Of a DNA stretch of 64,000 nt, positions 25,126-44,153 are shown one piece after another; the first letter of the stretch is position 1; each line of letters opens with the position of its first letter. The position numbers and the translations under genes were made by a program. The stretch covers positions 38,254,001 to 38,318,000 of the forward strand of contig NC_079170.1 in the NCBI RefSeq assembly GCF_947568905.1, read 5' to 3'. The notes under the pieces are model-generated. The model was given only the letters and a program-made list of their open reading frames with translations, searched no databases and was not told the DNA's origin. Source of the stretch: Ostrea edulis (taxonomy: Eukaryota).

Positions 25126-25432
25126 AGTAGTATAACGCCTCCCGATAGGGGGTTCAACTGAGTGCACTTTTTATGCAAATGAGGTCAAGCAAGGGCGTCT
25201 TTTGATTGGTCAAGCGGTGTCGGGGTCAACGGAGTGCACTAGGACGGGGTCAACCCCAGCAGGGGTTGTAGGAGCCGGTGAATAGGTTGGCCTATGGCCG
25301 CTGGTCTATGATGCGGTACTTTCGCTTTGAGTTCCTGCTATTTTTCTGAAAATAAAATCCAGTGAAATCCTGTGTATTAAATCTAAAAGAATAACACAAG
25401 GTTTTAAGTTGACATGTTTATTAAAGAACAAT
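25126..25432 (+). repeat. Left terminal inverted repeat (307 bp)
   Basis: Compared base by base with the reverse complement of 45058-45364; no mismatch seen. Confidence 0.97.
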
Positions 25433-25481
25433 TTAATTAATTTAGAGTGTTATTGACGTTGTGAAAAAACCTGCTTTTCTA

Positions 25482-25504
25482 TGACGTCACAATAAGTATA
25501 TAAA
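25482..25504 (+). promoter_or_regulatory. PolB promoter: CRE/ATF palindrome plus TATA box
   Basis: TGACGTCA at 25482-25489 and TATATAAA at 25497-25504; ATG at 25540. Confidence 0.6.
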
Positions 25505-25539
25505 CGCAATACACAATTCGCGTTATCACTTTCGACATC

Positions 25540-28500: not shown

Positions 28501-29499
28501 CGCAGTCTCACTGGCACCTGGGTGACCACCGAACTTCACAAAGCATTAGATCTAGGCTATCGTCTCGACCGCATTTACGAAGTTTGGCATTTTGAGAAAA
28601 CCAGTGACCACTTATTTCGAGCGTATATCAACACCTTTTTGAAAATTAAACAAGAAGCTTCCGGATTCCCCGAGGATTGTCAAACAGCCCAACAGCAGCA
28701 ACATTACATTGAGGAAATTCAGCAACGAGAAGGCATTGCCATGAACCCGGCAGACATCCAGAAAAATCCTGTCCGAAGAACCATTGCCAAACTCTTTTTA
28801 AATTGCTTGTGGGGAAAATTTGCTCAACGATTACAATTACCCAAATCCCTGTATCTCACGGAAGAAGAAGAATTACAACAGAAATTACAAGATGCCACTT
28901 TAGAAGTCAAAGGCATCGAACTCTTAGAAAATCGTGAACGCCCCGAATGTGGTATGATGCTGATCAATTATCAGGAGAAAGAAGAATTTTTAGAAGACTG
29001 TCCCTTTGGAAACGTGGTGCTGGCGTGTTTTACAACAGCTCATGCTCGTTTACATTTGTACGAGACGTTACAGCCTTTGGGAGAGCGTGTCTTATACTTT
29101 GACACGGATAGTATCATCTATCAGCACGACGAGACCCAGTTCAATCCGACCATTATCAACAGTTTAGGTGGCTGGACCGATGAATTGGGTGGAGATCGTA
29201 TCATCAAGTACATGTCGGGCGGGCCCAAAAATTATGCATACGAGACCCAGGGGGAAAAATCTGTCTGCAAAGTCAAAGGATTGACACTCAATTATCGTGC
29301 CTCTAGAGTCGTGTCTCTCGATACGTTGGAAAAAATGTTAAAAGGAGAAGAAGAAGAAGTCCATGTCCGTTATCCGCACTTTATTCAACGAACCCGCCAA
29401 CATGATGTGCGAACCATTCCTCTGGTGAAGAAATACCGCATGGTGTATGATAAACGTCAACGTATTCATGACTATGACACGCTGCCTTACGGGTATTAA
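25540..29499 (+). pseudogene. pPolB: Protein-primed family B DNA polymerase interrupted by one in-frame TGA at 28036-28038
   Basis: ORFs 25540-28038 and 28072-29499 are in the same frame. Motifs: OTU-like DSLCL...HYD; Exo I YYDFEC; Exo II HNFKGYD; Exo III YCISDV; Vsr-like GCYWHGC; YGGRT; DVCSLYP; KLFLNCLWGK; YFDTDS; PKNY. Confidence 0.96.
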
Positions 29500-29534
29500 A
29501 AAGGATATGCTAGAGAAAACCATCAGTCGGCAAA

Positions 29535-30065
29535 ATGACGGACTACGAATCACTACATAACCCGGGTACACCACGTTATGCTCTACTGTCAGATCGAGTA
29601 GCGTCGTTTGAAAATGCTCCCGAACACTTGCAGAAGCTATTACCTACCATTGCAGAAGCGGGATACTTTTACAAAGGGTACGGGGATAACACGTGCTGTT
29701 TTTATTGCAACTTTGGACTTCACCATTGGGGAGCTGTCGACAATCCTTGGATACAACATGCTTATTGGTATCCTCACTGTCCTTACCTGAAGTGTAATAA
29801 GGGTAAACAATGGGTACGTCAAATGTTCGACGCCGTTAGCCGAATGCGAGACACGGGGAAGAATTGGGGAGACTTGTCTGTAGACAGTGTGGAGAATCCG
29901 GCTACGACGACGGAGAAATGTCATCTGTGTTTAGAACGAGACTTGAGAATAGCTTTTTTACCTTGTGGTCATTTATGTACTTGTGCTATATGTGCTACGG
30001 GACTGAAATAATGTCCTATTTGTAGACATAGTGTTGAGCAAGCTGTACGTATTTTTATTTGTTAA
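29535..30065 (+). pseudogene. iap: IAP-like BIR plus RING protein; RING truncated by in-frame TAA at 30009-30011
   Basis: Exact BIR zinc motif CX2CX16HX6C; RING CHLC...PCGHLCTCAIC, and after the stop the frame continues CPICRHSVEQAVRIFIC to TAA at 30063-30065. Confidence 0.92.
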
Positions 30066-30105
30066 TAAATATGTATGATCCCATGAACTTGTGTCATTTA
30101 TCAAG

Positions 30106-30744
30106 ATGTATACCTACGAGACACTTGAGCCTTTTCAGTTGAAACATGAATTTACCATGACGGTGGCTGGACCCTCTAAATCGGGTAAAACAGAATTTGT
30201 GAAGCAACTGGTACAAAATACGCAGTGGATTGCACCGCCTCCCGAAAAGATAGTATGGTGTTATCGAGAATGGCAGTCCGCGTACGAATCCTTACAGGAC
30301 AAGGTCACTTTTATCCGCAATATACCTCAAGACGATGAGCAGATAGTGGCGGATCTCAGTACGTGTCATCTACTCATTTTTGATGATATGATGGGAGGTA
30401 AAGCCATCGAATCGATTGTCGACTGGTTTACGCGCAAAGCGCATCATCGAAATACCAGTGTCATTTATATCACACAAAATCTGTTTGATCGAGCAGTACA
30501 ACATCGTACCATCAGTCTGAATGCTCACTATCTTGTGCTGTTTAAAAATCCTCGAGATAAATCACAGATTGGGGTGTTAAGTCGGCAATTACAAATGCCG
30601 CATTTACTTCCAGCCTATGAGGACGCCACCCGTGTACCTCACGGGTATTTACTAGTGGACTTGAGTCCTCAGACGTCGGACGATTTAAGATTAAGAAGTC
30701 AACTCTTTACCAACTTGGCTGTGCACATGCCCCCGAGAGTATAA
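30106..30744 (+). CDS. ATP: Genome packaging ATPase (A32/FtsK-like)
   Basis: Walker A GPSKSGKT, Walker B LLIFDDM, then HHRNTSVIYITQN; first in-frame ATG at 30106 (track starts at GTG 30091). Confidence 0.95.
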   Translation: MYTYETLEPFQLKHEFTMTVAGPSKSGKTEFVKQLVQNTQWIAPPPEKIVWCYREWQSAYESLQDKVTFIRNIPQDDEQIVADLSTCHLLIFDDMMGGKAIESIVDWFTRKAHHRNTSVIYITQNLFDRAVQHRTISLNAHYLVLFKNPRDKSQIGVLSRQLQMPHLLPAYEDATRVPHGYLLVDLSPQTSDDLRLRSQLFTNLAVHMPPRV

Positions 30745-30793
30745 ATAATGTCACATCATGGGCAGGTGTATCATTCGAAAGACAGTCTTCACC

Positions 30794-31666
30794 ATGGGTA
30801 GACCTTCCGCGAAGAGTAAATTAGTCAAAACGTTACGCCGTTTACAACGGGAACGGGATCCCGTTCAACGGAGCCATCTCATTGAATTAGGACGTAGAGC
30901 CTTACTCAACTGGTTTGCGATGGGAGCTCGAAATTTATTGCGAGGCGTCTTACCAGGCAATAAAATCACTCAGCGGTTCATTCAATCCCATCGCCAAGAC
31001 TTGAGTGTCATTGCCGATAAGAAGTCCAATGAAGAAGAGCGTAAAAAAGCCATTTTGAAACGAGGAGGCGCTGGATTCTTAGGAGGGACCATTATCCGTC
31101 ATTTATTCAAATGGGAAACAGGTCGTAAGCCCCGTGGGGGACAACCCAAGAAAACCAAGAAACCACGGGCTAAGAAAGCTAAAAAATCACCTCAGAGAAT
31201 TCCTAAACTCATTATTCGCTTACCTAAGAAGACACCTAAGAAGTCCCCTAAGAAGTCCCCTAAGAAGACACCTCTCAGGATGAAGAATCCGTTTCCCAAT
31301 TGGGCTCCAAAGAAAACCCCTCTCATTGTGAAGATGCCGTTTCCCAAAGCCACTCCCCCCAAGGTCACTAAAACGTTAGCCAATCTGAAAGCCGGATTAG
31401 CTCAAAAGAAAATGGAACGACCCATGCATGGGCCTATAGGAAGTTCCAGAACCAGTGATACTGCTCTACCGAGTTTTGCTCATACCTTTGGAAGCATGAA
31501 ATTTCAACCCTTAACCACCTCAACACCGGTTCAGGTGCAAAAGAAATATAAATGTAAATTTTGCCCTCTGGTCTTCAATGCGAGAGAGAACCGCAATCGT
31601 CACGAAGAGACCGTCCATCACAAGCGTTTTGATCCTAAACATCCGAGTGCCATTGTCCTGGACTAG
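30794..31666 (+). CDS. Basic core-like protein with SPKK/TPKK repeats and a C-terminal C2H2 finger
   Basis: TATAAATA at 30740-30747 favours ATG 30794 (accATGg) over 30758; KKTPKKSPKKSPKKTP; YKCKFC...F......RHEETVH. Confidence 0.8.
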   Translation: MGRPSAKSKLVKTLRRLQRERDPVQRSHLIELGRRALLNWFAMGARNLLRGVLPGNKITQRFIQSHRQDLSVIADKKSNEEERKKAILKRGGAGFLGGTIIRHLFKWETGRKPRGGQPKKTKKPRAKKAKKSPQRIPKLIIRLPKKTPKKSPKKSPKKTPLRMKNPFPNWAPKKTPLIVKMPFPKATPPKVTKTLANLKAGLAQKKMERPMHGPIGSSRTSDTALPSFAHTFGSMKFQPLTTSTPVQVQKKYKCKFCPLVFNARENRNRHEETVHHKRFDPKHPSAIVLD

Positions 31667-31706
31667 GTATAAAAAGGAGGGGGAAGGGGCCCCACCCTTC
31701 ATTACC

Positions 31707-32036
31707 ATGGCTCATACGAAGAAGTGTGAATGTCGATTACGACCTCATTTACCGCTCTTGCAGACGTTAGCGGCTCCTCACTATTCCAGCAAATTAAAGA
31801 CAGAGGTGTTGAAACATTGTTCCAATGACTGCATTTTAAAGATTTGTGAGATTGTGTACAATCTATTAAAAGGGGTGATTCCTCTCAATCCTACTCAGAA
31901 GCGACAACTGGGTCGAAAGAAACACATCTTAAGACGCTTAGTCCGCCCTCAACCTGTGAAAAAACGACGAGGTATACTCATTCACCAAAAAGGATTGGGT
32001 TCGTTTGTGTGTGGCAAGATTTGTAAGAAATCATGA
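31707..32036 (+). CDS. Conserved Polinton small basic protein (109 aa)
   Basis: TATAAAAA at 31668-31675, ATG 31707; ICEIVYNLLKGVIPL...ILRRL...ILIHQKGLG pattern seen in Polinton core-like proteins (recognised by eye). Confidence 0.8.
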   Translation: MAHTKKCECRLRPHLPLLQTLAAPHYSSKLKTEVLKHCSNDCILKICEIVYNLLKGVIPLNPTQKRQLGRKKHILRRLVRPQPVKKRRGILIHQKGLGSFVCGKICKKS

Positions 32037-32803
32037 GTCGAAAAATGGTGTTGGTACCGGAAGCGATGCTCAACGAATTAAAAGGCAAATTACCTAAACC
32101 TCCCGAATTTACCTCGACTATTGGTTTACGCAGTGATTTGGACGAGATTGAACATCGAGATGATTTAACCGAGAAAGAAAAAGTGGGGTTGTACGGTCAT
32201 CAACTTCATCGCTATCGTCAATATTTACAACAAGCTCGACATCCCACCACAGCGACTCGACCCTCCCCAACCAGTGCAACCAGTGGCGCCTCACCACCCT
32301 CAGCCGCCTCAACACCCGATGACTTGGAGGAACAGATTATCAAAAGCGTCAATAAACCGGGTCAAAAGAAAGCAGGTTTATTACTCGATCATCTCAAGAA
32401 ATCCAAAGTGGTGACTTGGAATAAAGAAAGAGAAATCAGCTATAGAGGACGCAGGGTTCCCGATTCCAATATCGTGGATTTAATCACCGAGTCCCAGAGA
32501 CAAAAACCTTTGAAACATCGTGAACCCCCTGCAGGGTTACAGCAATTTGCTCAAGCGTTAAAAGAAACGAATGCCCCTAAAGGATATTTGACCAATCGGG
32601 ATGTTATAAAAGCCATGGACAAGCCCGGAAAAATCAGTACTCCTAAACCTATAGAAGAAGAAGATGAGAGCGGATTTCAAGAAATCTCTGGTTTTGACCA
32701 ATCTTTCTATGAAACTCCCAGACGAATGATGACCCCTAAAAATATCAGGGAGGCTGGTAAAAAGACATCACGTGAAATTGGAAAATGGTTAAATCTACCA
32801 TGA
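32033..32803 (+). CDS. Conserved uncharacterised Polinton protein upstream of integrase (256 aa)
   Basis: W.....I...G..VPDSNIVDL...G...F..AL...N.P motif pattern typical of the Polinton gene preceding INT. Confidence 0.8.
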   Translation: MSRKMVLVPEAMLNELKGKLPKPPEFTSTIGLRSDLDEIEHRDDLTEKEKVGLYGHQLHRYRQYLQQARHPTTATRPSPTSATSGASPPSAASTPDDLEEQIIKSVNKPGQKKAGLLLDHLKKSKVVTWNKEREISYRGRRVPDSNIVDLITESQRQKPLKHREPPAGLQQFAQALKETNAPKGYLTNRDVIKAMDKPGKISTPKPIEEEDESGFQEISGFDQSFYETPRRMMTPKNIREAGKKTSREIGKWLNLP

Positions 32804-33870
32804 AACCAGAACAGATCTTACAGCGACTGTATTACGATCCCAAGACAGGTTATGGGGGAGTCCAGGCGTTGTATCGTCAAGTGCGTCAATTAGGACACAA
32901 GATTACCCTGTCTCAAATTCGAGAATGGGTGAAAGCTCAAGATACCTATACCTTGCATAAACCGATACGGAGGAAATTCAAGCGACGACAAACACGCGTG
33001 ACGGATATGGATGAACAATGGCAATTAGATTTAGCCGATGTCTCCAGCTTGAAACAAGACAATAATGGGTATACGTTTTTATTATGTGCCATTGACGTGC
33101 TGTCTAAATATGCCTGGGTCGTGCCTTTAAAACAGAAAACGGGGAAAGAAATGATACGAGGCTTACGACGGATTTTTCGAGAGGGACGTCGCCCCGTGCG
33201 CATTCAGTCCGATCAAGGAAAAGAATTTACCAATAAAGAATTTCGTCAAGCCTTCAAATCCATTCATTTCTTTACGACCCGTAATGCCGAAACCAAAGCC
33301 AGTATTGTGGAACGTTTTCAACGCACGCTGAAAGCACGCATGTGGCGGTATTTTACACGTCATAAAACACGACGGTATGTCGATGTCTTGGCCGATCTGA
33401 TGTATGGTTACAATCATACCTATCATCGCAGTATCCGGCGAGCTCCTGCTCAAGTCAATGCCAAGAATGTCTTGACCGTATGGAAAACCTTGTATGGAAA
33501 ACAGAGTGCCGATACCACGAGTCGCTTGCAAGTGGGGGATCGTGTAAGCATTAGTAAAGCTAAACGTACGTTTGAAAAAGGATATTTACCGAATTGGACC
33601 AAAGAACTGTTTACCATCTCTAGAAAAGTGCCAGGACGAAACGTCTATCGCATTCAAGATGATCACGGGGAAGAATTAGAAGGAACCTTTTACGAGAAGG
33701 AATTACAACAAGTGATTAAAGACGACGATGTCTATGAAGTGGAGGAAATCTTAGGGTATAAAAAGCGGCGTGTGGGAAAAAAAGTCATTTCAGAAGTCAA
33801 AGTGCGTTGGAAAGGATATCCTCCCAGTTTTGATTCATGGATTCCGCAAGCGGATCTCATTCGACCATGA
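32800..33870 (+). CDS. INT: Retroviral-like DDE integrase with C-terminal chromodomain
   Basis: WQLDLAD, IQSDQGKEF, ASIVERFQRTLK (D,D,E); chromodomain YEVEEIL...VRWKGYPPSFDSWIP. Start at ATG 32800 (ATGA overlap) or 32785. Confidence 0.96.
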   Translation: MKPEQILQRLYYDPKTGYGGVQALYRQVRQLGHKITLSQIREWVKAQDTYTLHKPIRRKFKRRQTRVTDMDEQWQLDLADVSSLKQDNNGYTFLLCAIDVLSKYAWVVPLKQKTGKEMIRGLRRIFREGRRPVRIQSDQGKEFTNKEFRQAFKSIHFFTTRNAETKASIVERFQRTLKARMWRYFTRHKTRRYVDVLADLMYGYNHTYHRSIRRAPAQVNAKNVLTVWKTLYGKQSADTTSRLQVGDRVSISKAKRTFEKGYLPNWTKELFTISRKVPGRNVYRIQDDHGEELEGTFYEKELQQVIKDDDVYEVEEILGYKKRRVGKKVISEVKVRWKGYPPSFDSWIPQADLIRP

Positions 33871-34124
33871 CCACCCAGTGGACTTTCTTGGGTGAAAAAG
33901 TCCCCCGAGCAGAAATTGTGTATTTTGCACAATTATTCCTGTGTTTAACCATCATTATCACCTCGGTCGTGATGTTAGCCTTAGGCGATCCCAATCGCGA
34001 TTTTTGGATGGTGACCTTAAGTTCTCTCGTAGGCTACGTCATGCCTAGTCCACAAATGACGTTAGCGAGCCCGAGTATAAAACAGGAGTCCCCTTCACCT
34101 GAGAGATCAGTTCACCATGGCTAA
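33867..34124 (+). CDS. Small predicted two-TM membrane protein (85 aa)
   Basis: ATG overlaps the integrase TGA; hydrophobic IVYFAQLFLCLTIIITSVVMLAL and FWMVTLSSLVGYVMP. Confidence 0.7.
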   Translation: MTTQWTFLGEKVPRAEIVYFAQLFLCLTIIITSVVMLALGDPNRDFWMVTLSSLVGYVMPSPQMTLASPSIKQESPSPERSVHHG

Positions 34125-34572
34125 GCCACAGTACGCCTGGAAACAAGAGGGGGAGAAAAGTACCTGGTTCTGGGATAAGCAGATGTGTTTGATGCATTGT
34201 AAACAACACAAAGTGTTAGATCAACCGGTGTACTTGTACAAACGGATACTGATACCTCACGGATGGTCAGCCTTTATCATGAAGACTAAATATCAAGAGT
34301 TTCGCTGGAAAGTCAAAGCCTTCTGGGGATTGATGGGACGACAAGACGAATCCGATTGGACCTTAAATGATAGTCCTTGGTTTGACAATTCCGAGGACTG
34401 TCTCCGACATTTCAAAGACATGATCAATGAAGGTTATGATGTAGCCGATTGCTGGGGAACCCGACACTATCTGGTGATGCGACGACGCTTAGTCCCGAGA
34501 CGAACACTAGAGTTGGAAGACTCCTTTCTACAATCGTTGACTTGCGGTGGTGGTCGCGATCAAGAAGAATGA
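34117..34572 (+). CDS. Hypothetical protein (151 aa, Trp-rich)
   Basis: ORF with TATAAAA at 34076-34082, accATGg start and AATAAA at 34610-34615; no family recognised. Confidence 0.7.
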   Translation: MAKPQYAWKQEGEKSTWFWDKQMCLMHCKQHKVLDQPVYLYKRILIPHGWSAFIMKTKYQEFRWKVKAFWGLMGRQDESDWTLNDSPWFDNSEDCLRHFKDMINEGYDVADCWGTRHYLVMRRRLVPRRTLELEDSFLQSLTCGGGRDQEE

Positions 34573-34687
34573 CATGTAAAATTGTGTATTAACATTATGT
34601 TGTATGTTCAATAAAATATGAAAATGTTCATTGTGTTATGAGTATAAATAGAGAAGGAAACAGAGACAGGGTCTCATTTAAGACATC

Positions 34688-35683
34688 ATGGCTGGAGGAG
34701 AAGGGTTTTACATGACTCTGTTGAGTGATGGGTCGATGGAATCGTTTCCGACGAATACGACGGCTCAATTTAAAACGTTATTGCCACACACCATGGACTT
34801 AACGGATGGAGAATGGGAAGTCGGATTGACCGAAATGATGTACTCGGCCAACTTACAAAACGTATCGGATAGCGAGGCTTATGTGGACGTTCTCATTCCA
34901 GATCCGTATACGCAATATGTCCAAGATCCCAACACTTATAAATGGGAAAGATTTAAGACACAGAATATGGGTAAAGTCACGATAGCCGGGTGTGAGGTGG
35001 TGGTCCCCTGGGATCTCACGCCATGGTCCCATCTCTTTGCGGGAGGGGATAGTTTATTTCCCTTCGATATCATTCGCATTCACTTCCGACCCGGAGCTTA
35101 TACACAACCTTTGGCGTTAATCAATGAAATCAACGCAGCCTTAAGGAGAACCCTGTGGAAAGTATGGAGGGAGTTAGGGAATCCTAACGACGAGGGGAAC
35201 AACCAGCTCTTAGTGTATCACCCCGAGTACGATCGTGTCGAGTATCAGTTTAATGGGAAAGCACTGAGATCCACCCCCATGTGCATTCGTTTCCCTACGC
35301 CCTTAGCGTACAAGCTAGGTCTGGATAGTGACAAAATGATCCTGGGCGATGAAACCATGACGAAATGGATCAACGTGAATTACTTGGGGAACACGGCCAT
35401 GGATGTCTACGACAATCTGAAAGCCATGTATGTGTATTGTGACATTGTGGATCCTCAAGTGGTGGGCACCAACAAATTGAAATTATTGAGAGTCGTCCCC
35501 TGTACGGGTCAATACGACGATCGACAACAAGCCCGTTGGGAACCGATTCGAGCCGAATATTTGAAACTGAGTAAGAAATATTTCGATACCATTGAGGTAC
35601 ACATCATGAATTCTTTAGGGCGTCCTATGGGCTTTTTAAATGGGCGCTCCTTAGTCAAACTTCATTTCCGCAAAGTGTATTGA
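34688..35683 (+). CDS. PX: Minor capsid protein (penton-like, single jelly roll)
   Basis: N-terminal FYMTLLSD...FKTLLP..MDL..EWEVGLTE and C-terminal YVYCDIV...VG......LLRVVP...DTIEVHI....G...F..G....LHF motifs; TATAAATA at 34643. Confidence 0.9.
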   Translation: MAGGEGFYMTLLSDGSMESFPTNTTAQFKTLLPHTMDLTDGEWEVGLTEMMYSANLQNVSDSEAYVDVLIPDPYTQYVQDPNTYKWERFKTQNMGKVTIAGCEVVVPWDLTPWSHLFAGGDSLFPFDIIRIHFRPGAYTQPLALINEINAALRRTLWKVWRELGNPNDEGNNQLLVYHPEYDRVEYQFNGKALRSTPMCIRFPTPLAYKLGLDSDKMILGDETMTKWINVNYLGNTAMDVYDNLKAMYVYCDIVDPQVVGTNKLKLLRVVPCTGQYDDRQQARWEPIRAEYLKLSKKYFDTIEVHIMNSLGRPMGFLNGRSLVKLHFRKVY

Positions 35684-35686
35684 AAG

Positions 35687-35830
35687 ATGAAGTACCATCG
35701 AGGAGTCAGACGCCAGAAAGGACACGGAATCTGGTTTCTCATTCCATGGATTGCCAATGCCATTGTGGGTCAAGCGGGCCAAGGAAAGAAGAGAAAGAGA
35801 CGGCGTAAAAAGTATAAAAAGCGGGTGTAA
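35687..35830 (+). CDS. 47-aa basic core/pX-like peptide (not in the ORF track)
   Basis: MKYHRGVRRQKGHGIWFLIPWIANAIVGQAGQGKKRKRRRKKYKKRV; starts 4 nt after the penton stop; N-terminus matches the next ORF. Confidence 0.75.
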   Translation: MKYHRGVRRQKGHGIWFLIPWIANAIVGQAGQGKKRKRRRKKYKKRV

Positions 35831-35857
35831 CCCCTAACGAAGTTCATTTACATCAAG

Positions 35858-36553
35858 ATGCACTACCATAAAGGTTTAATACGGCAGCAGGGTCACGGGC
35901 TTGGAGCCCTGTTGGGAATAGCCAGCAAAGTGGCGGGTCCCCTGATCAGCGGATTATTAGGTGGAGCCCCCGCACAACAACAACAACAGCGTCCTGTCTA
36001 TCAAGAGAGATATTATGATTACGACCGCCCTTATCGCCCTTATCGCTCTTATCAGAGGAGACGACGTAGAAGCCATCCAACAGAAGAATATGATCCAGAA
36101 TCTGAAAAGCAGAAGGGAAAAGGATTTTTCACCGATTTACTCAAATCGGGGGCTAAAAGTGCCTTAAAGGCTGCTGCTAAAACAGGGATGGATGTGTTAG
36201 ATAATAAACGATCCCTCAAAGACGCTCTCAAGACACACGGTGTCCAAGCCCTGAAAGAGACAGCAGGGTATGCCCGTAGGCGAAGATCTCGAAAAGCCCC
36301 ATCCAAACGAGGAAGAAAATCGCGCACAGGAATACTCAGGAAGCCTGGAACCACGACCGTCAAAAGAAAACAGGTGGGAAAACAGGTGGGAATACAGGAA
36401 GGAAAAGGATTTGTTAAAAGAAAACAACGTATCTTAGCTCGGGGAGGGCCTCATAAGAGACCTAGGAAGCAACCTAGGAAGCGATCTAGGAAGGGAGGTA
36501 GGAAGCTCGTGAAAAGGGGTAAGCCAAAACGCTCTCTGGATATTTTCGACTGA
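35858..36553 (+). CDS. Basic core / membrane-penetration-like precursor with repeated QxGxG motifs (231 aa)
   Basis: RQQGHG-LGALLG, KQKGKG-FFTDLL and IQEGKG-FVK; amphipathic segments after the motifs; Arg/Lys-rich tail; TATAAAAA at 35813. Confidence 0.8.
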   Translation: MHYHKGLIRQQGHGLGALLGIASKVAGPLISGLLGGAPAQQQQQRPVYQERYYDYDRPYRPYRSYQRRRRRSHPTEEYDPESEKQKGKGFFTDLLKSGAKSALKAAAKTGMDVLDNKRSLKDALKTHGVQALKETAGYARRRRSRKAPSKRGRKSRTGILRKPGTTTVKRKQVGKQVGIQEGKGFVKRKQRILARGGPHKRPRKQPRKRSRKGGRKLVKRGKPKRSLDIFD

Positions 36554-36632
36554 GAACCCTATAAAAAGGGGGTGAGAAGGACACCAGAACACATTTGATC
36601 CCAGTTCACGCTGAGTAACACATCGTTCCAAT

Positions 36633-38036
36633 ATGATGCACAGAGAATCTTGCGCTTGTGGCACCGACAGTTTAGAACTGTTTAAAGTGCCCCCGACCAA
36701 CGTCACTTTAGAAGATTCGAAATGGATGGAATATTACCCCATTTCCAGTACCCTCAACTCGGATACGGCTCCGATTGAATTTGAAATCAAAGGACAAGGA
36801 GATGAATATCTGGATTTATCCCAAACTTATCTCCAGATGGTCTGTAAATTCACCAAAGCAGACGGGACGAATCTCGCAGGAGGCAATTCGACCTCGACCC
36901 CCGTGAATAACATTCTCCATTCCTTGTTCAGTGAAATCGATGTCAGTCTCAATGGAAAAGTCATTACCCCGGGGACGGATACTTATCCCTACAAAGCGTA
37001 TCTGGAGAAATTGTTGTCTTATGCACCCAAGACTCTGGAAACCCAGATGAGAGCCTGTAGCTTGTGGGAAAAAGATACGGCAGGACATATGGATGAGGTC
37101 AAATTAGAAGCTCTGACTCAACCTCCTGTGGAATTTGCAGTAGCGCTTGATAAAGTCAACATCGCGGCCGTCATCCCGACTCCCGTGTATCCGGATGATT
37201 CCAAGAATGTAGGGTTGAGAAAACGTCACGAGAAGATTACAGACAGTAAGGAGATCGTGTTGATGGATCGATTACATCTGGATTTGTTTGAGCAAGAGAA
37301 ATGTCTCCCTAATGGCTTGGATGTCCGTCTCAGATTCAATCGCGCTCGACCCCAGTTCTACATGATGACCGCTGCCGGGAGTAGTGGGAAAGTGGTCATT
37401 CAAAGTATGATCTTGTGGGTGAGGAAAGTCAAACCTGTGCCGAGTATCATTAATCTCATCAATCAGCAACTGAGTACTCAAACGGCGAAATATCCATTGA
37501 GACGAGTGGAAGTGAAAACCTTCACCATTCCTAGTGGCACCCAGTCTAAAATCACCGATCATCTGTTTCAAGGACAGATGCCTAAACTGATCGTGTTGGG
37601 TTTTGTGGACAATGCGGCTTTTAATGGGGATAATACCAGAAACCCCTTTCATTTCCAAAATGAGAGAGTCAAGAAATTAGAAATCAGTATCAATGGAGAA
37701 ATGATGGAAACCCGCCCTTTGGAACCTAATTTCACCGACGATCAGTACCTGAGATCGTATTTGAGTCTGTACAAAGGCTTGGGAAAATTAGGCCAGGACT
37801 GGGCTCCGGACATTACCCTGGAAGAGTATAAAAACGGTTACACCCTCTGGTGTGTGGATTTCACGAAAGATCAAGAAGCCCAGACGGATAAATTTCATCT
37901 CATACAGACGGGGAACTTGAGAGTGGAAGTGCAATTTGCCGCCAACGTGGCCAGGACCTTAAACTGTGTGGTGTATGCCGTGTTCGACAATCTGCTAGAA
38001 ATCAACAAACAACGAGAAGTCAGTATCGATTACTAA
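36633..38036 (+). CDS. PY: Major capsid protein (double jelly roll)
   Basis: PIEFEI...[48 protein letters not shown] and GNLRVEVQF motifs; TATAAAAA at 36560. Confidence 0.95.
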
Positions 38037-38043
38037 GAGAGAG

Positions 38044-38541
38044 ATGGATACTCAGCAATTGAGAGATGTTTTACAACGAGATTTAGGACCGGCGTTTGCC
38101 GGTGTGTATCCTCGAGATGTCATACCTGAGCTGTTACCTCATCACAAAGCCATCGTGGTGAATACAGACCCTCACGATCGCCCTGGAGCGCATTGGGTCT
38201 GTTTGTATTTGAGTAGCCCTACCGTCGAATATTTTGATTCTTACGGATTACCTCCCAGCCATAAAGACATCCAAGACTTTATTCAACGCCACGGAGAGAC
38301 TTGGATTCATAACACCCATTGTTATCAAGATTTGAATACGGATGTCTGTGGACAATACTGTGTGTATTTTTTACATCAACGCCATCGCCATAGAAGCACC
38401 GTACGAGAATGGTTACTTCCCTGGAAAGGCACGGCCTTACAACGCGATCGTTTTGTGGCGGATTGGTTTAAAGAGACCTTCCGAAAACCGAGAACCCATC
38501 AAGGACAAACTTGTCAATGTCAAAGACTGAATGTATTGTAA
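38044..38541 (+). CDS. PRO: Adenain-like cysteine maturation protease
   Basis: NTD...PGAHW, YFDSYG, YQ.....CGQYC catalytic His/Asp/Gln/Cys pattern. Confidence 0.95.
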   Translation: MDTQQLRDVLQRDLGPAFAGVYPRDVIPELLPHHKAIVVNTDPHDRPGAHWVCLYLSSPTVEYFDSYGLPPSHKDIQDFIQRHGETWIHNTHCYQDLNTDVCGQYCVYFLHQRHRHRSTVREWLLPWKGTALQRDRFVADWFKETFRKPRTHQGQTCQCQRLNVL

Positions 38542-38632
38542 ACTATGTTATTGTTATTGTTCATAGTTGGAGTTTAATAAAACGTTGGGAAAAAAAAATA
38601 TTTTTTTTTTCTTGTCATTGTAATCAACCATG

Positions 38633-38673
38633 TCTTTTCAAAAAGAATGGGTAGCCCTGAAAAGGGCTGTTTT
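38633..38673 (-). terminator. Histone-type 3' stem-loop plus purine-rich downstream element
   Basis: Minus strand: AAAAC AGCCCT TTTC AGGGCT ACCCA TTCTTTTT GAAAAGA, 84 nt after the stop of ORF 38753-39052. Confidence 0.75.
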
Positions 38674-38752
38674 CTTTCTCTCTCTGTTCTTGGTCTTTTC
38701 TCTTCTTCTCTCTTCTTCTCTCTCTTCTCTTCTTCTCTTCTCTGTCCCCCTC

Positions 38753-39052
38753 TCACTGTCTGTTCTTCTTCTTCTTCTTTCTTCTCTTCTTTTTCTGCTC
38801 CTCCGGGGGTTGCTCGTGGTCAAACACAAACACAGGCAACCACCCGTGTTTAAAAAACAATCTCCCCGGAGGCCGCTGCACCACTTCTAACTCTGCGTCC
38901 CAGTTTTCCTCAGGCGGGGGCAGATCCTGGCTCATGGGCGGTGGGGGAAGAGCCTCCCGTGAGGCCGGCGGGGCAATCTCTTCGTCCCAATCCTCCTCAC
39001 ATTTGTAACAATAATCATTCACCGTAGGGTCTGATCCTACTCTGCGACTCAT
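38753..39052 (-). CDS. Hypothetical 99-aa acidic/Pro-rich protein with a basic C-terminal NLS-like tail
   Basis: ATG-started ORF with upstream shared promoter motif and downstream stem-loop; EEDWDEE and EENWDAE repeats; KKKRRKKKKK. Confidence 0.65.
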   Translation of the reverse strand: MSRRVGSDPTVNDYCYKCEEDWDEEIAPPASREALPPPPMSQDLPPPEENWDAELEVVQRPPGRLFFKHGWLPVFVFDHEQPPEEQKKKRRKKKKKNRQ

Positions 39053-39104
39053 CGTTCTGGTTCCTTTAAAAAATCGGAATGCCCGATTTTTGACGTTGCG
39101 CTCG

Positions 39105-39144
39105 TTTAAAAAGGCGAGAGCGCGGACGTCCTCGAAAACATCCC
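39105..39144 (-). promoter_or_regulatory. Shared promoter motif, copy 1, plus TATA-like TTTAAA
   Basis: AGCGCGGACGTCCTCGAAAACATCCC at 39119-39144; near-identical copy at 41151-41176. Confidence 0.65.
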
Positions 39145-39159
39145 CCTACCTCAGATGGC

Positions 39160-39197
39160 TGACGTCATGTTGATGACTCATCAAAAAACACTATATA
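39160..39197 (+). promoter_or_regulatory. CRE plus AP-1 plus TATA promoter of the Cys-rich gene
   Basis: TGACGTCA 39160-39167, TGACTCA 39174-39180, TATATA 39192-39197; ATG 39230. Confidence 0.55.
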
Positions 39198-39229
39198 CAT
39201 AGGTCACTTGTTACCATTTTTTCTCAATC

Positions 39230-39631
39230 ATGTCGTTTGAACGGTACGTGGATGGTGAGAAAGATGTACTAATGTGTGGGTATTGCCGAGGACCTTGGAG
39301 AACTTGTGGGTGTTTTCATTATAAAAAAGAAAACATCCTGGCCAAACATAAGTGGATAGAGTATATGGCAGAGCTGAATTATTGTCCCTTTGTCTATAAA
39401 TGTTGTGGTCACACTAGAGAACCCTGGCTACCGTGTAAGTGTCCGCAGCATTGTACCATCAACCCTGAAGATGAAATAGCTCATAAGGACTGTACCTGTG
39501 AGATCTGTCAGGAGTTTAGAGAGCGCTGGACTCAGAGAAAGTTTAAACCCCACCTGTTTCAACATTGTCCTTACAGTCAAGAACCCCGGTCAACGTGTAC
39601 CTGTGAGACCTGTCAACCAGCATGTCGGTGA
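39230..39631 (+). CDS. Cys/His-rich putative metal-binding protein (133 aa)
   Basis: Many CxxC/CxC motifs; internal repeat CTCEICQ / CTCETCQ. Confidence 0.7.
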   Translation: MSFERYVDGEKDVLMCGYCRGPWRTCGCFHYKKENILAKHKWIEYMAELNYCPFVYKCCGHTREPWLPCKCPQHCTINPEDEIAHKDCTCEICQEFRERWTQRKFKPHLFQHCPYSQEPRSTCTCETCQPACR

Positions 39632-40119
39632 CGGATCTACGAGGAGATGTATTATCTCTACCTTGGGTGGATGGTATTGTACAACAATGTAACTGTTTAA
39701 CGGTGAAACCTCATGGATTAAGTCAACGTATTGCCGACCGATTTCCTTGGGCTAATCTGTATGCGACCCGACAACCTTTAGGACGAAGAAATTTAGCTAT
39801 AGAAGCGGATCGAGGAATACCGGGTACTGTGTGTATTATGCCTCATTCTTCTCATCCTGATGTAATCTGTTTGTTAGCGCAATGGGATTACGGGAGAGGC
39901 ACTCAACGCTTACCCCTGTATGCCGATACCCCCGAACAACGTGAACTTTGGTTTCAACAATGTTTACAGGAATTAGGCACTTTGTCTTACCAGACTTTAG
40001 CGTTTCCTTATCGTATTGGATGTGGATTAGGCGGAGGCAATTGGACTCATTATAGACAATGGATTTGTGACTTTGCTTATCAGTATCATAAACATGTTTA
40101 CATTGTCAAGAAAATGTAA
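39622..40119 (+). CDS. Macrodomain protein (TARG1/DarG/SCO6735-like class), putative ADP-ribosyl hydrolase
   Basis: GDVL...IVQQCNC...GL...I...FP; VICLLAQ..YG; FPYRIGCGLGGGNW diphosphate-binding loop. Confidence 0.85.
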   Translation: MSVTDLRGDVLSLPWVDGIVQQCNCLTVKPHGLSQRIADRFPWANLYATRQPLGRRNLAIEADRGIPGTVCIMPHSSHPDVICLLAQWDYGRGTQRLPLYADTPEQRELWFQQCLQELGTLSYQTLAFPYRIGCGLGGGNWTHYRQWICDFAYQYHKHVYIVKKM

Positions 40120-40211
40120 CTTTATTATAGCTTTATTCTAGCTATTACTTGTGTTAATAAAACTTTTTAAAAACAAACTTGTGTGTTTCTTGATTTTTGC
40201 CATAAAAAGTG

Positions 40212-40250
40212 TCTTTTCAAAAAAGTTGGTGGCCCTGAAAAGGGCCGTTT
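40212..40250 (-). terminator. Canonical histone mRNA 3' stem-loop plus purine-rich downstream element
   Basis: Minus strand: AAAC GGCCCT TTTC AGGGCC ACCAA CTTTTTT GAAAAGA, 23 nt after the RING-gene stop. Confidence 0.85.
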
Positions 40251-40269
40251 GGTCCTAAGGACCGACTTT

Positions 40270-41058
40270 TCAATCCCTGGTTCCGGTAAACCGGCATAAC
40301 GGGCACCGTCCCCGGGTGTGTCGCCGCTCCTGTAACTCTTCCACGCACGAGCAGCAAGCTGGGCGCTGCCCACATCCCCTACACGTAATTCCAGAGTGTA
40401 CCCTGTCTTGCCAGCAGACAGGACACTTAAACCAGATAGGAACCGCCCTATCTGCCCAGCCAGGGACAGTCATAGGGTGGTTCCTCGGGGGATGAGTTGC
40501 CACCGGTGCGTGGGTTGGTCTCGGTGGCGGAGTCCTCCCTGCAAACCGGATGGTAGGTGGTGGGGGTCTTGCAGGGGCTGCTGGTCTCGGTGGTGATGCC
40601 GTGTCTGCCACCAACAGCGACGGACTCTGGGCTGGACTGGGAGGTGGTGCGGGGGACGGTGACCTCGGTGAATACTCCACCGGTGACGCTGGTGAGTCGC
40701 TCATCGGCACCGGGCTGTATTCCTCAGGTGCCGATGGGATCGGTGGTGGTGGTGTTGTAGGCGTCGCCGGGGAGTAAGGTGGTGGTGGTGAGGGTGGCTG
40801 TGGGGCCCGTCGGCGCGGTCTCGTGGCCGTGGAGATTCGAGCGGTGCGGCGGCGGGGTGCCCTCCCTTCATACTCGGCCCGCACCCGGCAGATGATCTCA
40901 CGGACCCCACTCTGGTCGAAAGGGGAGAAGGTGCTCAGGTCGTTCTCAGAACGCACGACCCAATTCTCCCCTACCCGTTCCTCAGCCACCACTACCAGCC
41001 GGTACCGGAATCCAGGCAAGGTCTGGAAATTGTAGAGCGGGTCTCTTCTTGTAGCCAT
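40270..41058 (-). CDS. Pro-rich protein with a C-terminal RING finger (C4C4-like), 262 aa
   Basis: ATG at 41058 (track start 41109 is GTG); CPVC-x10-C-x2-C-x5-CCSC-x13-CPLCR; PPPPY and YSP repeats. Confidence 0.8.
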   Translation of the reverse strand: MATRRDPLYNFQTLPGFRYRLVVVAEERVGENWVVRSENDLSTFSPFDQSGVREIICRVRAEYEGRAPRRRTARISTATRPRRRAPQPPSPPPPYSPATPTTPPPPIPSAPEEYSPVPMSDSPASPVEYSPRSPSPAPPPSPAQSPSLLVADTASPPRPAAPARPPPPTIRFAGRTPPPRPTHAPVATHPPRNHPMTVPGWADRAVPIWFKCPVCWQDRVHSGITCRGCGQRPACCSCVEELQERRHTRGRCPLCRFTGTRD

Positions 41059-41137
41059 TCTTCTTTCTTCTTTCTTCTTTAAAATCCTTCTACAACTGTG
41101 CTGGATCACCAGTGAAGCGAACTGGCGAGTGCGCCGG

Positions 41138-41176
41138 TATATATCAGGAAAGCGCGGACCTCCTCGAAAACATCCC
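41138..41176 (-). promoter_or_regulatory. Shared promoter motif, copy 2, plus TATATA
   Basis: AGCGCGGACCTCCTCGAAAACATCCC at 41151-41176 (25/26 identical to 39119-39144); TATATA at 41138-41143. Confidence 0.65.
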
Positions 41177-41611
41177 TCGCTTCGGAGACGAAGCCAAGAT
41201 GGTGGCCGTCAAAATGGCGGATTTGTGCTTTCGAGTAGAGAGTTTTTTCTCATTGTCTTTTTCTAGACATTCGATATCTGTGCAAGGTAGATTTAATCTG
41301 ATAGATTCTGAGACGGCGAATGCGTTAAACTTATTTTTATTTTGCTACGTCGCATAGTTTTCAAAGAAACAGCGGTTAAAGAGGTCGAGTCGAGGTTCAA
41401 TGTTTCTTCACCACCTCTTTAAAAATTTATTTCTCGACCATGTACATCCCTAAAAACATCTCATAAGGTCTATTCGATAGAAAACACCTTATTTGATTCG
41501 ATTTTCACTCTACCTTTAGGATTTTCTGGATTCCTCAACAAATAAACCCTTCTCTGAGAGACTCAACCAAACACAGCTTTCGTGTAAACAATTTTATTCA
41601 TGTCACATATT

Positions 41612-41830
41612 TCAAATACATAACTCCCACACACAACACCAATGCACATGTCTTTTTAAAATAGGGTCCAACATTTTTTCCATTTCTCGAATCCTGCGTT
41701 GAAATCGATATCGATCAGCGGCTACAGTCATCCAGATACTTGTCCGGTCTTCTTCGGGTAACCGATACACTTCATTATGATCCAGATTAAAAGTCACACG
41801 TTTAACTTGACGTACATCTCTCGAAGACAT
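41612..41830 (-). CDS. DP71L/ICP34.5/GADD34-like PP1 regulatory subunit (72 aa)
   Basis: ATG 41830: MSSRDVRQVKRVTFNLDHNEVYRLPEEDRTSIWMTVAADRYRFQRRIREMEKMLDPIL; RVxF motif plus the W...A.DR.RF.RRI...E..L signature. Confidence 0.85.
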   Translation of the reverse strand: MSSRDVRQVKRVTFNLDHNEVYRLPEEDRTSIWMTVAADRYRFQRRIREMEKMLDPILKRHVHWCCVWELCI

Positions 41831-42099
41831 CGTAGTCTGATTTTCTCGATTTCTGCTCTGTCTGTGGGTCGAATTCGTTTCAATTCCTGGCCCATTAAAT
41901 GAATCAATACTAAGGCTTGCGGGGTGATCCGGTTCTCGATCAAATACTGACAGAGACATGGATAGTCCTTTAAGCTGATGGGAAATAATTCTTCTCGCAT
42001 ATAGTGTAACACAAATTCAATCTGCCAAGAATGAATGTCTGTGAGATAATCCAATACATAAGTTATCGCTTTCTCTGTGATGTGGTCACTGCTGGCCAT
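41794..42099 (-). CDS. Unknown helical protein, tandem paralogue 4 (101 aa)
   Basis: ATG 42099; shares FPxxLxxY and LxxIxxxGxExKxxxP....I..I...L motifs with its neighbours. Confidence 0.75.
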   Translation of the reverse strand: MASSDHITEKAITYVLDYLTDIHSWQIEFVLHYMREELFPISLKDYPCLCQYLIENRITPQALVLIHLMGQELKRIRPTDRAEIEKIRLRCLREMYVKLNV

Positions 42100-42433
42100 C
42101 CTCCGGGAATAAATGAAATGAATTAAGTTCTTCACACTTTATGTATACTTCTCGAAGCCAGTCCTTGGTGATACTTTCAATCTCAACGGTTTTTTCAGGC
42201 ATGCGTTTCTTGAATTCCTCCCCCAGGACATAAATTAACATCAATCCCGCATCGTTATAGAGATTGATGTATATCCGGTTCCGTAGATCTGTATATTCGT
42301 CCAGAGTCATTGGAAACACCCCCGCTATCAGAAAATTTTTAACGAATTGAAACACCGTATCGTCTTGCATTTTCTCGACCCATTCTAATGCATGGTTATG
42401 CGCTTTTTCTGCGATGTTGTCACTGCTGGCCAT
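42086..42433 (-). CDS. Unknown helical protein, tandem paralogue 3 (115 aa)
   Basis: Start region GGAGGATGGCCAGCAGTGAC identical to that of the 42099 ORF; shared protein motifs. Confidence 0.8.
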   Translation of the reverse strand: MASSDNIAEKAHNHALEWVEKMQDDTVFQFVKNFLIAGVFPMTLDEYTDLRNRIYINLYNDAGLMLIYVLGEEFKKRMPEKTVEIESITKDWLREVYIKCEELNSFHLFPEDGQQ

Positions 42434-42462
42434 CCTCCACGAATAAAGGAAAAGAAAAACGG

Positions 42463-42816
42463 TTAGGTTTTTTTATACACCTTTTCCAACCAGTGATCGG
42501 TAATCGCTACAATCGCCCCAGTCTTCTCAGGTTCCCGTCGTCTAAATTCTTGCTCCATGGTATAATTCATGATCAATCCAGACTCTCTGTTCAGGTTGCC
42601 GGCTATATGCTTGCAAACGCCGGAATATTCATATAAGGTCATAGGAAATTCCCAAAAGATCAACAACTTCATAGCGAATTTATATCTCAACGGCTGTTTT
42701 TCTTTCCAGTCCTTGATACACTGTAATGCAGCGCTACGAGCGTTGTTCACCGATTCTTTGTAGTCCTTGAAATGCTGTAATACAGCGGTAAGAACGTTGT
42801 TGGTCAATTCAGCCAT
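42463..42816 (-). CDS. Unknown helical protein, tandem paralogue 2 (117 aa)
   Basis: FPMTLYEY, EQEFRRREPEKT and HWLEKVY align with paralogue 3. Confidence 0.75.
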   Translation of the reverse strand: MAELTNNVLTAVLQHFKDYKESVNNARSAALQCIKDWKEKQPLRYKFAMKLLIFWEFPMTLYEYSGVCKHIAGNLNRESGLIMNYTMEQEFRRREPEKTGAIVAITDHWLEKVYKKT

Positions 42817-42853
42817 GATGATCAAAATGAAAAAATTCCAAAACGTTCTTGTT

Positions 42854-43186
42854 TTATAACAGGGCAGCCATTCCTTTCATACGAATCAGTTCCACGAATC
42901 CTTTTTGTAAACAATCGCGTAAGATCCGATCAATGTCACTCATCTGGTCTGGAAGATTCTGTTTCAATTCCTCAGCATACAAATAAATCATGAGTAAACG
43001 TCCCGTATTGGTATTCTCCGCTAATGAATCAGCAATCCGTTGAAAACTATGTACATTTCTGACCTCCGGTGACATCTGTTGTACAAATTGACGAGCATTT
43101 TGAATGTGAGGATTATGTAAGGCCATGTTCATACATTGTAGTACATAACTATATCCATTTATTCTCGTAGTAGCACTGCCGCCCAT
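42854..43186 (-). CDS. Unknown helical protein, tandem paralogue 1 (110 aa)
   Basis: LLMIYLYAEELKQNLP...IDRILRDCL aligns with the family; TATAAATA on the minus strand at 43217-43224 favours ATG 43186 over 43213. Confidence 0.7.
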   Translation of the reverse strand: MGGSATTRINGYSYVLQCMNMALHNPHIQNARQFVQQMSPEVRNVHSFQRIADSLAENTNTGRLLMIYLYAEELKQNLPDQMSDIDRILRDCLQKGFVELIRMKGMAALL

Positions 43187-43216
43187 AGTAAATAACGAAC
43201 GTTCAGAAAACATCTG

Positions 43217-43290
43217 TATTTATAGGTAAAGGTTATGCATCACGTGATCAAACACCTGCACCACGTGATCAAACACCTGTACGTCAGCTG
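43217..43290. promoter_or_regulatory. Divergent promoter with duplicated E-box module
   Basis: CACGTGATCAAACACCTG at 43241-43258 and 43262-43279, ACGTCA and CAGCTG at 43281-43290, between divergent ATGs at 43186 and 43326. Confidence 0.6.
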
Positions 43291-43325
43291 GTTTTTCTAC
43301 AGTCATTCTTGTCTGACCTTCAGTC

Positions 43326-43832
43326 ATGGATACACGGAGAATTTTAAGAGCGAGACGCTGCCGCCAGGGAATACAATCAGTGGAGAATTTAACCATAGTG
43401 GAAGATTATGTAGACGAGATGGAGATCTGGGACAATTTAGTACAGAGATGTCGCCATCGATTACGCTGGGGGCGATCTAAAAATTGGTGTTTTGACTATG
43501 TATTGCGGTCACATGAAACAGTGGAGGATATTTGCCTACGATTAAGTGACATGTACCTGAAAAATTCCCCCCTCATACAGTACATGATTTACCAGTTTTA
43601 CACGTTATTGAACGGCACTCAAAAAGTATCGGGATTTATTCGACTGGAGAAACCACGTTACCGAAGAAGTGTATGGGTATTGTTTTGGGATGCACACTGG
43701 ATGTGGGAAACCGTCGAAGAGATACGTTTCCCCGGGAGAAGAGCTCGACAATTAGTACAACACATTATATCCGAAGATCATGACTTACACGTGTATATAG
43801 AAGAACCTGCGTATGAAGCCGGCCATTTTTAA
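43326..43832 (+). CDS. Protein with a degenerate CRESS-virus Rep (HUH) endonuclease-like domain (168 aa)
   Basis: SKNWCF ... IQYMIYQ ... NGTQKVSGFIRLEKPR ... V..LF.DAHW follows the circo/nanovirus Rep N-domain pattern; HUH and YxxK catalytic residues are absent. Confidence 0.62.
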   Translation: MDTRRILRARRCRQGIQSVENLTIVEDYVDEMEIWDNLVQRCRHRLRWGRSKNWCFDYVLRSHETVEDICLRLSDMYLKNSPLIQYMIYQFYTLLNGTQKVSGFIRLEKPRYRRSVWVLFWDAHWMWETVEEIRFPGRRARQLVQHIISEDHDLHVYIEEPAYEAGHF

Positions 43833-43847
43833 AAATAAAAACTTCAT

Positions 43848-43871
43848 GCACAGCCCTTTTTAGGGCTACTT
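43848..43871 (+). terminator. Possible histone-type stem-loop
   Basis: AGCCCT TTTT AGGGCT AC at 43852-43869, 19 nt after the Rep-like stop; AATAAA at 43835 precedes it; no clear downstream element. Confidence 0.5.
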
Positions 43872-43920
43872 TAAACATCAATATAAGTTCCATTCCACTA
43901 AAGTCAATGTGTACCAATGT

Positions 43921-43992
43921 GCACTAGCACGCGCTGGTCGCGAGAAACCGGCTTTTCAAGTTCAATTAGGGCACTAGCACGCGCTGGTCGCG
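43921..43992. repeat. 22-bp direct repeat, 50-bp period, upstream of the zinc-knuckle gene
   Basis: GCACTAGCACGCGCTGGTCGCG at 43921-43942 and 43971-43992. Confidence 0.9.
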
Positions 43993-44153
43993 CGATGTTC
44001 TAGCTGAAACCGGTTTTTCCAGAAAAAGATGATGCAACCACGTGCTCCCCACGTGCCCCCCCACGAGACAGAATAGTCTAGACATTTTGCTGGCTATAAA
44101 AGCGGAGCCCCAGTGTCAGTCCTCATTCGATCTTCAATCACCTTCCAGAAGAC

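Follow-up and report, generated by a model that had tools for sequence, protein, structure and literature searches.

A putative DP71L/GADD34-like PP1-eIF2alpha adaptor in oyster Polintons, overlapping a likely Bcl-2-like gene

Viral mimics of the PP1-eIF2alpha adaptor are known from herpesviruses, asfarviruses and avipoxviruses (PMC13712846, PMC5346070). ASFV DP71L (PDB 9NB9) packs an RVxF motif, a W..DRxRFxRRI motif and an L-x-x-x-L tail into about 70 amino acids, and exists in short (70-72 amino acids) and long (184 amino acids) forms (PMC5346070). It binds PP1 through V16 and F18, and the leucines of its LSAVL stretch are needed for eIF2alpha dephosphorylation (PMC5346070). DP71L suppresses all four ISR kinases and assembles into a complex with PP1, eIF2alpha and G-actin, and its shorter linker has been tied to tighter PP1 binding (10.1101/2025.02.28.640897). 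The avipoxvirus protein CNPV231 reduces PKR- and GCN2-induced eIF2alpha phosphorylation in yeast (PMC13712846).

Here we describe a 72-amino-acid (aa) open reading frame (ORF) with these elements in a Polinton of the oyster Ostrea edulis, within a window of 64,000 nucleotides (the whole stretch of DNA analysed). Like DP71L, it has a short and a long frame, but its linker is one residue longer, as in CReP, and its gene lies in an integrating Polinton, overprinted on a likely Bcl-2-like gene. It has the PF10488 core in common with GADD34 and CReP (PPP1R15A/B) and with the last exon of the host's PPP1R15, but lacks their long N-terminal region and has no intron. HSV ICP34.5 and CNPV231 are viral PP1-eIF2alpha adaptors, the activity predicted for our protein; they come from large DNA viruses of vertebrates, whereas the present gene sits in a 20-kb endogenous element of an invertebrate.

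Among the accessory genes of adintoviruses and Polintons, Bcl2 and IAP homologues have been reported before (PMC8502044); the main text of that report does not contain 'phosphatase' or 'eIF2', nor does one supplementary file contain GADD, PP1, DP71 or ICP34. A term search found no mention of phosphatase or eIF2 in PMC8097293, PMC11131425, 10.1101/2025.04.19.649669 or 10.64898/2026.10.13.758929. We found no publication that pairs a Polinton with GADD34 or the integrated stress response, although subscription papers, Repbase reports and the 391-protein table of a preprint may mention it; in broader searches, none of the matches listed combined Polinton with a term for the adaptor family. We read the locus as an established viral strategy found in a different kind of carrier, where the frame is overprinted and the gene was likely passed on to a herpes-like virus.

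The Polinton and its adaptor-like gene

The initial annotation assigned the ORF to a Polinton, and the surrounding DNA bears this out, with terminal inverted repeats (TIRs), AGTAGT ends, a 6-bp target-site duplication (TSD) and the pPolB, integrase, ATPase and protease gene set:

25126..45364, no strand: Polinton/Maverick, 20,239 bp, AGTAGT...ACTACT ends, TSD GTCATC (25120-25125 and 45365-45370)
25126..25432, no strand: left TIR, 100% complementary to the right TIR
45058..45364, no strand: right TIR
25540..29499, plus: protein-primed PolB; an in-frame stop at 28036-28038 interrupts it
29535..30011, plus: IAP (BIR plus RING-type finger)
30106..30744, plus: A32-like packaging ATPase
32785..33870, plus: rve integrase with chromodomain
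36633..38036, plus: likely double-jelly-roll major capsid protein (Atlas lead)
38044..38541, plus: adenain-like protease (Peptidase_C5 E 2.9e-4, 0.3 bit below cut-off)
39230..39631, plus: Cys-rich 133-aa ORF of no known family, common to herpes-like insertions on contig C8

The end motif accords with the description in PMC8097293. Identical TIRs and many near-identical integrated copies point to recent integration. The capsid ORF had no Pfam match; it has Atlas neighbours at 0.98, with a DJR-like family on 14-24% of the members of the top clusters. The RING finger of the IAP ends early, and this copy may be truncated. ORF 39622-40119 (plus) is at most a possible macrodomain, with PDB matches reaching only E about 0.01 and no Pfam match; in the public protein P0153 an adaptor core continues into sequence similar to this ORF. 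The minus-strand ORF 40270-41058, for which Pfam gave no match, encodes a Pro-rich protein whose C-terminus shows a RING-like Cys pattern. Outside the Polinton, a LINE-type reverse transcriptase ORF (54633-56411, plus) lies amid tandem repeats.

Near the right end of the Polinton, the adaptor-like gene comprises the following features:

41612..41830, minus: putative 72-aa PPP1R15/DP71L-like PP1-eIF2alpha adaptor, short form (start ATG 41830, A at -3)
41789..41803, minus: predicted RVxF PP1-docking motif KRVTF, residues 10-14; the B4 stop codon lies inside it in another frame
41690..41746, minus: predicted eIF2alpha-binding-type motif, R29..W33..A-x-D-R-x-R-F-xx-R-I47
41657..41671, minus: LDPIL, aligned with LSAVL of DP71L, both leucines retained
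41593..41598, minus: AATAAA directly past the adaptor stop

Read from ATG 41830, the ORF contains KRVTF (10-14) and WMTVAADRYRFQRRIREMEKMLDPIL (33-58), identical to the sequence first quoted, and it is nested as described, sharing its stop with a 115-aa ORF (41612-41959). PF10488 is the sole Pfam family listed for the 72-aa protein, which scores 26.4 bits (E 6.7e-6) against a curated cut-off of 26.1, a margin of 0.3 bit; the 115-aa form scores 26.2 bits, and many sister copies reach 28-34 bits in a profile search of the genome. The proposed DP71L/GADD34-type membership was also upheld by phmmer against PDB, in which DP71L (9nb9_B, E 8.3e-6) ranked first of the eight sequences listed and two CReP chains (4v0x_B and 4v0u_E, E 1.3-1.5e-4) second and third, with GADD34 fragments at E 0.26 and 1.1. 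The RVxF, R, W, DRxRF, RRI and L-x-x-x-L elements all line up with DP71L and CReP. The one substitution lies in RTSIW, where Ser replaces the Gly of RKGPW in DP71L and CReP; Gly is presumably the residue expected at this position in the head of the eIF2alpha-binding motif. The two-motif pattern occurs once in the six frames of the window and in 0 of 200 base shuffles of the element. No TATA match was found upstream of either adaptor ATG.

We surveyed copies in the host genome (895 Mb, nearly all in ten contigs), which holds at least 150 scored matches to the protein among 197 candidates; 10 rows of the 150 genomic matches list an internal stop. Seventy loci were examined, the 30 best and 40 picked down the ranking, and hence not a random sample. 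These fell into families A (35), B/C (25), D (2) and E (5), with three loci that could not be anchored at RVxF. The eIF2alpha-type motif, whose tail PMC5346070 gives as [Arlv]x[Dn][Rg]xRFxx[Rlvk][Ivc], is present in the 72-aa protein and retained in 63 of the 70 copies; among these 63, RVxF is present in 61 and an L-x-P/L-I/V-L tail in 58. Most B/C copies carry KCVTF in the RVxF position. Over the 46 core codons, dN/dS was 0.20-0.31 in eight of ten Polinton pairs, the remaining two being close pairs with 0.56 and 0.82, on 6 and 4 changes. By these sequence comparisons, the core of the 72-aa ORF is a selected protein-coding gene, under purifying selection.

A likely Bcl-2-like cluster, the overlap and the choice of start

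Upstream of the adaptor, on the same strand, lie four paralogues (pairwise E 3e-18 to 0.03), the last of which overlaps it:

42854..43213, minus: B1, probable start 43186; TATA-like site 43218-43224
42463..42816, minus: B2, paralogue of B3 and B4; TATA-like site 42852-42858
42086..42433, minus: B3, paralogue of B4 (34% identity); TATA-like site 42471-42477
41794..42099, minus: B4 (101 aa), overlapping the adaptor, with a likely minimal Bcl-2-like fold
41612..41959, minus: 115-aa long form, in which the adaptor core follows a 43-aa N-terminal tail encoded in a second frame across the 3' half of B4
41975..41985, minus: pyrimidine tract plus CAG upstream of the long ATG, candidate splice acceptor (a lead only)

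B1 gives a weak Pfam Bcl-2 match (E 0.007, below cut-off). The structure model of B4 (pLDDT 91.9) matches A179L best (Z 7.7, rmsd 3.2 A, 100 aligned), and seven of its eight top rows are Bcl-2-family proteins, yet all have Z < 8, for a helical protein, and Foldseek gave E > 1. On this modelling, B1-B4 are likely Bcl-2-like. The number and order of genes in this tandem array differ among copies. No consensus splice donor was found within the cluster, and the AATAAA at 41593-41598 is the first downstream of it, except for one near the B1 start. TATA-like sites before B1-B3 and an AATAAA after the adaptor would fit nested, 3'-coterminal transcripts.

The long frame covers the last 55 codons of B4. 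It had been dismissed as spurious, a view not supported by the B/C copies, which lack the short ATG, mostly keep the upstream one and hold the frame stop-free beyond chance. The short ATG (at -9) is present in 35 of 35 family-A copies and in none of the 25 family-B/C copies; the upstream ATG is present in all 35 A copies and in 23 of 25 B/C copies, at -52 or -54 in the latter. An in-frame ATG within 47 codons occurs in a single B/C copy of 25, itself frameshifted, and the tail frame is open in 24 of 25; two of 35 family-A copies have a tail stop. When B4 was resampled synonymously, a stop-free overlap had P 0.04-0.07 in family A (a value biased by the choice of this ORF for its length), 0.003-0.010 in B and 0.001-0.003 in C. 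In the paralogues B1-B3, the equivalent frame is broken by 3, 3 and 5 stops, and of 62 control tiles only 2 were free of them. Because A and B/C are only 59-62% identical over the overlap, with third positions near saturated, B/C provide a fair independent test of the open frame.

Openness does not extend to the residues encoded. Between A and B/C, the overlap shows pS 0.72-0.85 and pN 0.25-0.28 in the B4 frame, versus pS 0.20-0.28 and pN 0.41-0.44 in the adaptor frame; substitutions track B4, which argues that the tail residues are not selected. Synonymous change in B4 is no lower in the overlap than upstream of it. Open but unconserved, the tail is likely a passenger that initiation requires. 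Our best reading of these sequences is that B/C use the upstream start and make a product of about 108-115 aa, and that family A gained a second start in better context and may yield the 72-aa product, the longer one or a mix of the two. At -3 the family-A long ATG carries T, in contrast to 20 other starts examined, 18 of which carry A and two G; ATG 41830 shares the A of that majority, and this better context makes the 72-aa start plausible for the window copy.

The start context, the lack of amino-acid selection on the tail, the modest family-A probability for a frame picked by length and the shortness of the nearest public relatives (P0128 and P0129) would all suit the view of the initial annotation, in which the 72-aa form alone is real and the longer frame a by-product. 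We consider this rather unlikely, since B/C copies conserve the core without a single short ATG, their frame is stop-free at P 0.001-0.01, and the herpes-like copies described below retain the tail, with its ATCATCATG start and a preceding AT-rich, TATA-like stretch, after losing B4. It is very improbable that the adaptor is instead made as a B4 fusion by -1 ribosomal frameshifting just ahead of the B4 stop. Family A does carry G-TTA-AAC, which we take to resemble a viral slippery site, 3 bases before that stop, and a -1 slip there would enter the VKRVTF frame; but the heptamer is not conserved in B/C (A-GAA-AAC/AAT), and the frame is open far upstream, which frameshifting would not need.

Of 58 copies, 52 have a pyrimidine tract with YAG just 5' of the long ATG, where the background rate is 14-20%; as these copies are related, the count amounts to about three independent cases. 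In four sequencing runs of unrecorded library type, all 30 bins were covered, including TIR and promoter DNA, so the runs are uninformative on expression and splicing; by the same token, nothing on splicing follows from the 15 joints listed (of 18), all of which end elsewhere than at the candidate acceptor. In two further loci (L054 and L057), unrelated DNA replaces the 5' half of B4 and ends exactly at the long-form ATG.

Other Polinton families, the host exon and herpes-like insertions

A survey of other Polintons, proposed at the outset, found the adaptor in further families of the same genome (E and F). Family E (five copies) has a stand-alone 74-aa form; one copy, when extended, proved to lie in a distant Polinton with a capsid 32-41% identical. 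In family F, a form of about 70 aa directly follows a Bcl-2-like gene without overlap, in a Polinton whose capsid is 28-40% identical; the family-F copy L071 has an internal stop. One distant Polinton (L083:7562-9097) has three adjacent genes, one Bcl-2-like, one for a short PP1 adaptor and one for a CARD-PC4 fusion. At G000:C8:4170320-4170463 (L091) there is a short adaptor-like stretch, and the 10 kb fetched around it contained no match to the proteins of the window's Polinton. One of 116 family matches is the last exon of the host PPP1R15 (L072), where an intron acceptor directly precedes VHF.

Outside this genome, a homologous-protein search returned only two near relatives, and the ten top relatives carried no informative names. 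A narrow pattern scan of IMG/VR gave one locus among 38 candidates, on a 360-kb contig (L123), and no free Polinton-sized record. A profile search collected 1,586 representatives with E no higher than 0.001; among the best 150, 99 have at most 130 aa, and some may be exon fragments. That the nearest relatives, P0128 and P0129, are short lends slight support to the order that these sequences suggest, with the short form ancestral and the overlap derived.

We built a tree by a quick method from 134 cores over 57 columns, keeping 121 of 149 representatives; it is unrooted and has 10 of 130 branches starred. In this weakly resolved tree, the window's lineage stands apart from the host PPP1R15 exon. 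The herpes-like copies fall inside the group of families A, A2, B and C (SH-aLRT 82-83, weak), and family F among cellular-type rows (SH-aLRT 81-86, weak).

Family D lies outside Polintons: L061, L069 and one more copy, within L113, occupy repeated stretches of contig C8 that are dense in genes. Herpes-like insertions occupy about 52.22-52.37 Mb and 25.44-25.54 Mb of this contig (G000:C8; L095-L098 and L102-L122), where a unit with many secreted-type ORFs recurs every 115-120 kb or so. The stretch around L061 encodes a helicase, a kinase, a protein with a weak heliorhodopsin match and a herpes-type terminase (DNA_pack_C E 1e-15 and DNA_pack_N E 1e-10 in L109; Peploviricota commonest in its top Atlas cluster); BIR proteins lie near L069. 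Most long ORFs of the insertions have no Pfam match, and one scan of a herpes-like stretch (46 of 108 long ORFs) found no Pfam match to an HK97 capsid protein or a DNA polymerase.

Compared as DNA with 25 herpes-like loci, the whole Polinton matched in two pieces only: the adaptor region, 77-80% identical across about 250 nt, and ORF 39230-39631, the Cys-rich one, which has six matches on C8. This ORF is shared with L112, L118 and L120 at 43-57% identity. Teratorn, the fish piggyBac-herpesvirus fusion, is likewise an endogenous herpes-like virus with DNA of another mobile element, but the DNA shared on C8, as matched to the Polinton, consists of two accessory genes rather than a transposase. 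The D copies keep the long frame (106-107 aa) and lack the 5' half of B4, whose frame is broken or headless; a B4 remnant persists at 79-83% over 64-71 nt, and in two of the three herpes-like copies RVxF lacks a nearby ATG. B4 is homologous along its length to paralogues in distant Polintons, so the remnant points to transfer from Polinton to herpes-like virus. On this sequence evidence, the long form and the B4 remnant likely passed in that direction. Between herpes-like and Polinton copies, dN/dS was 0.21-2.33, on too few changes for a call.

In all three herpes-like copies KRVTF is intact and the eIF2alpha motif degenerate, as might be expected if the protein bound PP1 but targeted another substrate or simply sequestered it. 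The Ser in place of the Gly of RKGPW would agree with this, as would DP71L mutants with RVxF and without the distal motif, which appear to sequester PP1 (PMC5346070). Polinton copies, by contrast, retain the eIF2alpha-type motif and LDPIL under purifying selection, and for the Polinton protein we judge such an activity improbable.

Proposed function and significance

Since the functional elements of DP71L are all kept in the 72-aa protein, it is highly probable that this is a PP1-eIF2alpha adaptor that would reverse translation shut-off. Through KRVTF the adaptor would likely bind host PP1 and bring it to phosphorylated eIF2alpha, so that translation shut off by stress could resume while the element is active. 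The gene stands last in a likely anti-apoptotic cassette formed by B1-B4, the IAP lying in another part of the Polinton; in the window's lineage its frame is overprinted on the 3' half of B4. Such a counter-stress role fits its neighbours, the IAP and four likely Bcl-2-like genes. The in-frame stop in PolB of the window copy counts against this reading.

The initial annotation saw the protein as countering a PKR/PERK response, as a lytic virus would. An adaptor of this kind acts downstream of all eIF2alpha kinases, so PKR is not singled out; PERK has been reported in oyster antiviral responses (PMC9680061). As for the lytic cycle, protection of the cell during transposition or co-infection fits the sequence data equally well. 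The specific proposal that stress inhibition is real but serves survival of germline or embryonic cells in transposition, or co-infection with a large helper virus, rather than a lytic cycle of its own, strikes us as possible, though on the unlikely side. It draws on the many near-identical integrated copies with identical TIRs and recent integration, on the two genes in common with a herpes-like insertion and on the Polinton-like viruses dependent on large DNA viruses that are described. However, the capsid, ATPase, protease, IAP and Bcl-2-like genes suit an infectious virus, and the present data show no sign of helper dependence.

Taken jointly, the observations may portray animal Polintons as stress-response-blocking viruses, several families of which carry a minimal GADD34 mimic, possibly captured more than once. 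In one lineage the mimic would have been overprinted on a Bcl-2-like gene, yielding a single cassette against shut-off and apoptosis, and a co-resident herpes-like virus would have received this overprinted gene from the Polinton, retaining the new frame while discarding the old one. We offer this joint reading tentatively, our doubts slightly outweighing our confidence.

With this adaptor, Polintons would join herpes-, asfar- and poxviruses as carriers of a GADD34 mimic, of which we found no earlier statement in the literature searched, and it bears on the question whether animal Polintons are live viruses or mere transposons. A selected, putative antagonist of eIF2alpha shut-off, set beside likely anti-apoptotic genes, is equipment for a virus with a high protein output in a cell that resists it. 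At 72-115 aa, the gene is small enough for direct testing in yeast or cell lines. With 1,586 representatives, some perhaps exon fragments, the pool of minimal adaptors is much larger than the set of 391 proteins covered by 10.1101/2025.02.28.640897. Their common genes suggest that a herpes-like virus and Polintons encounter each other within the same host cells. If the joint reading is true, the locus would be a snapshot of de novo frame fixation and of Polinton-herpesvirus gene traffic in co-infected cells.
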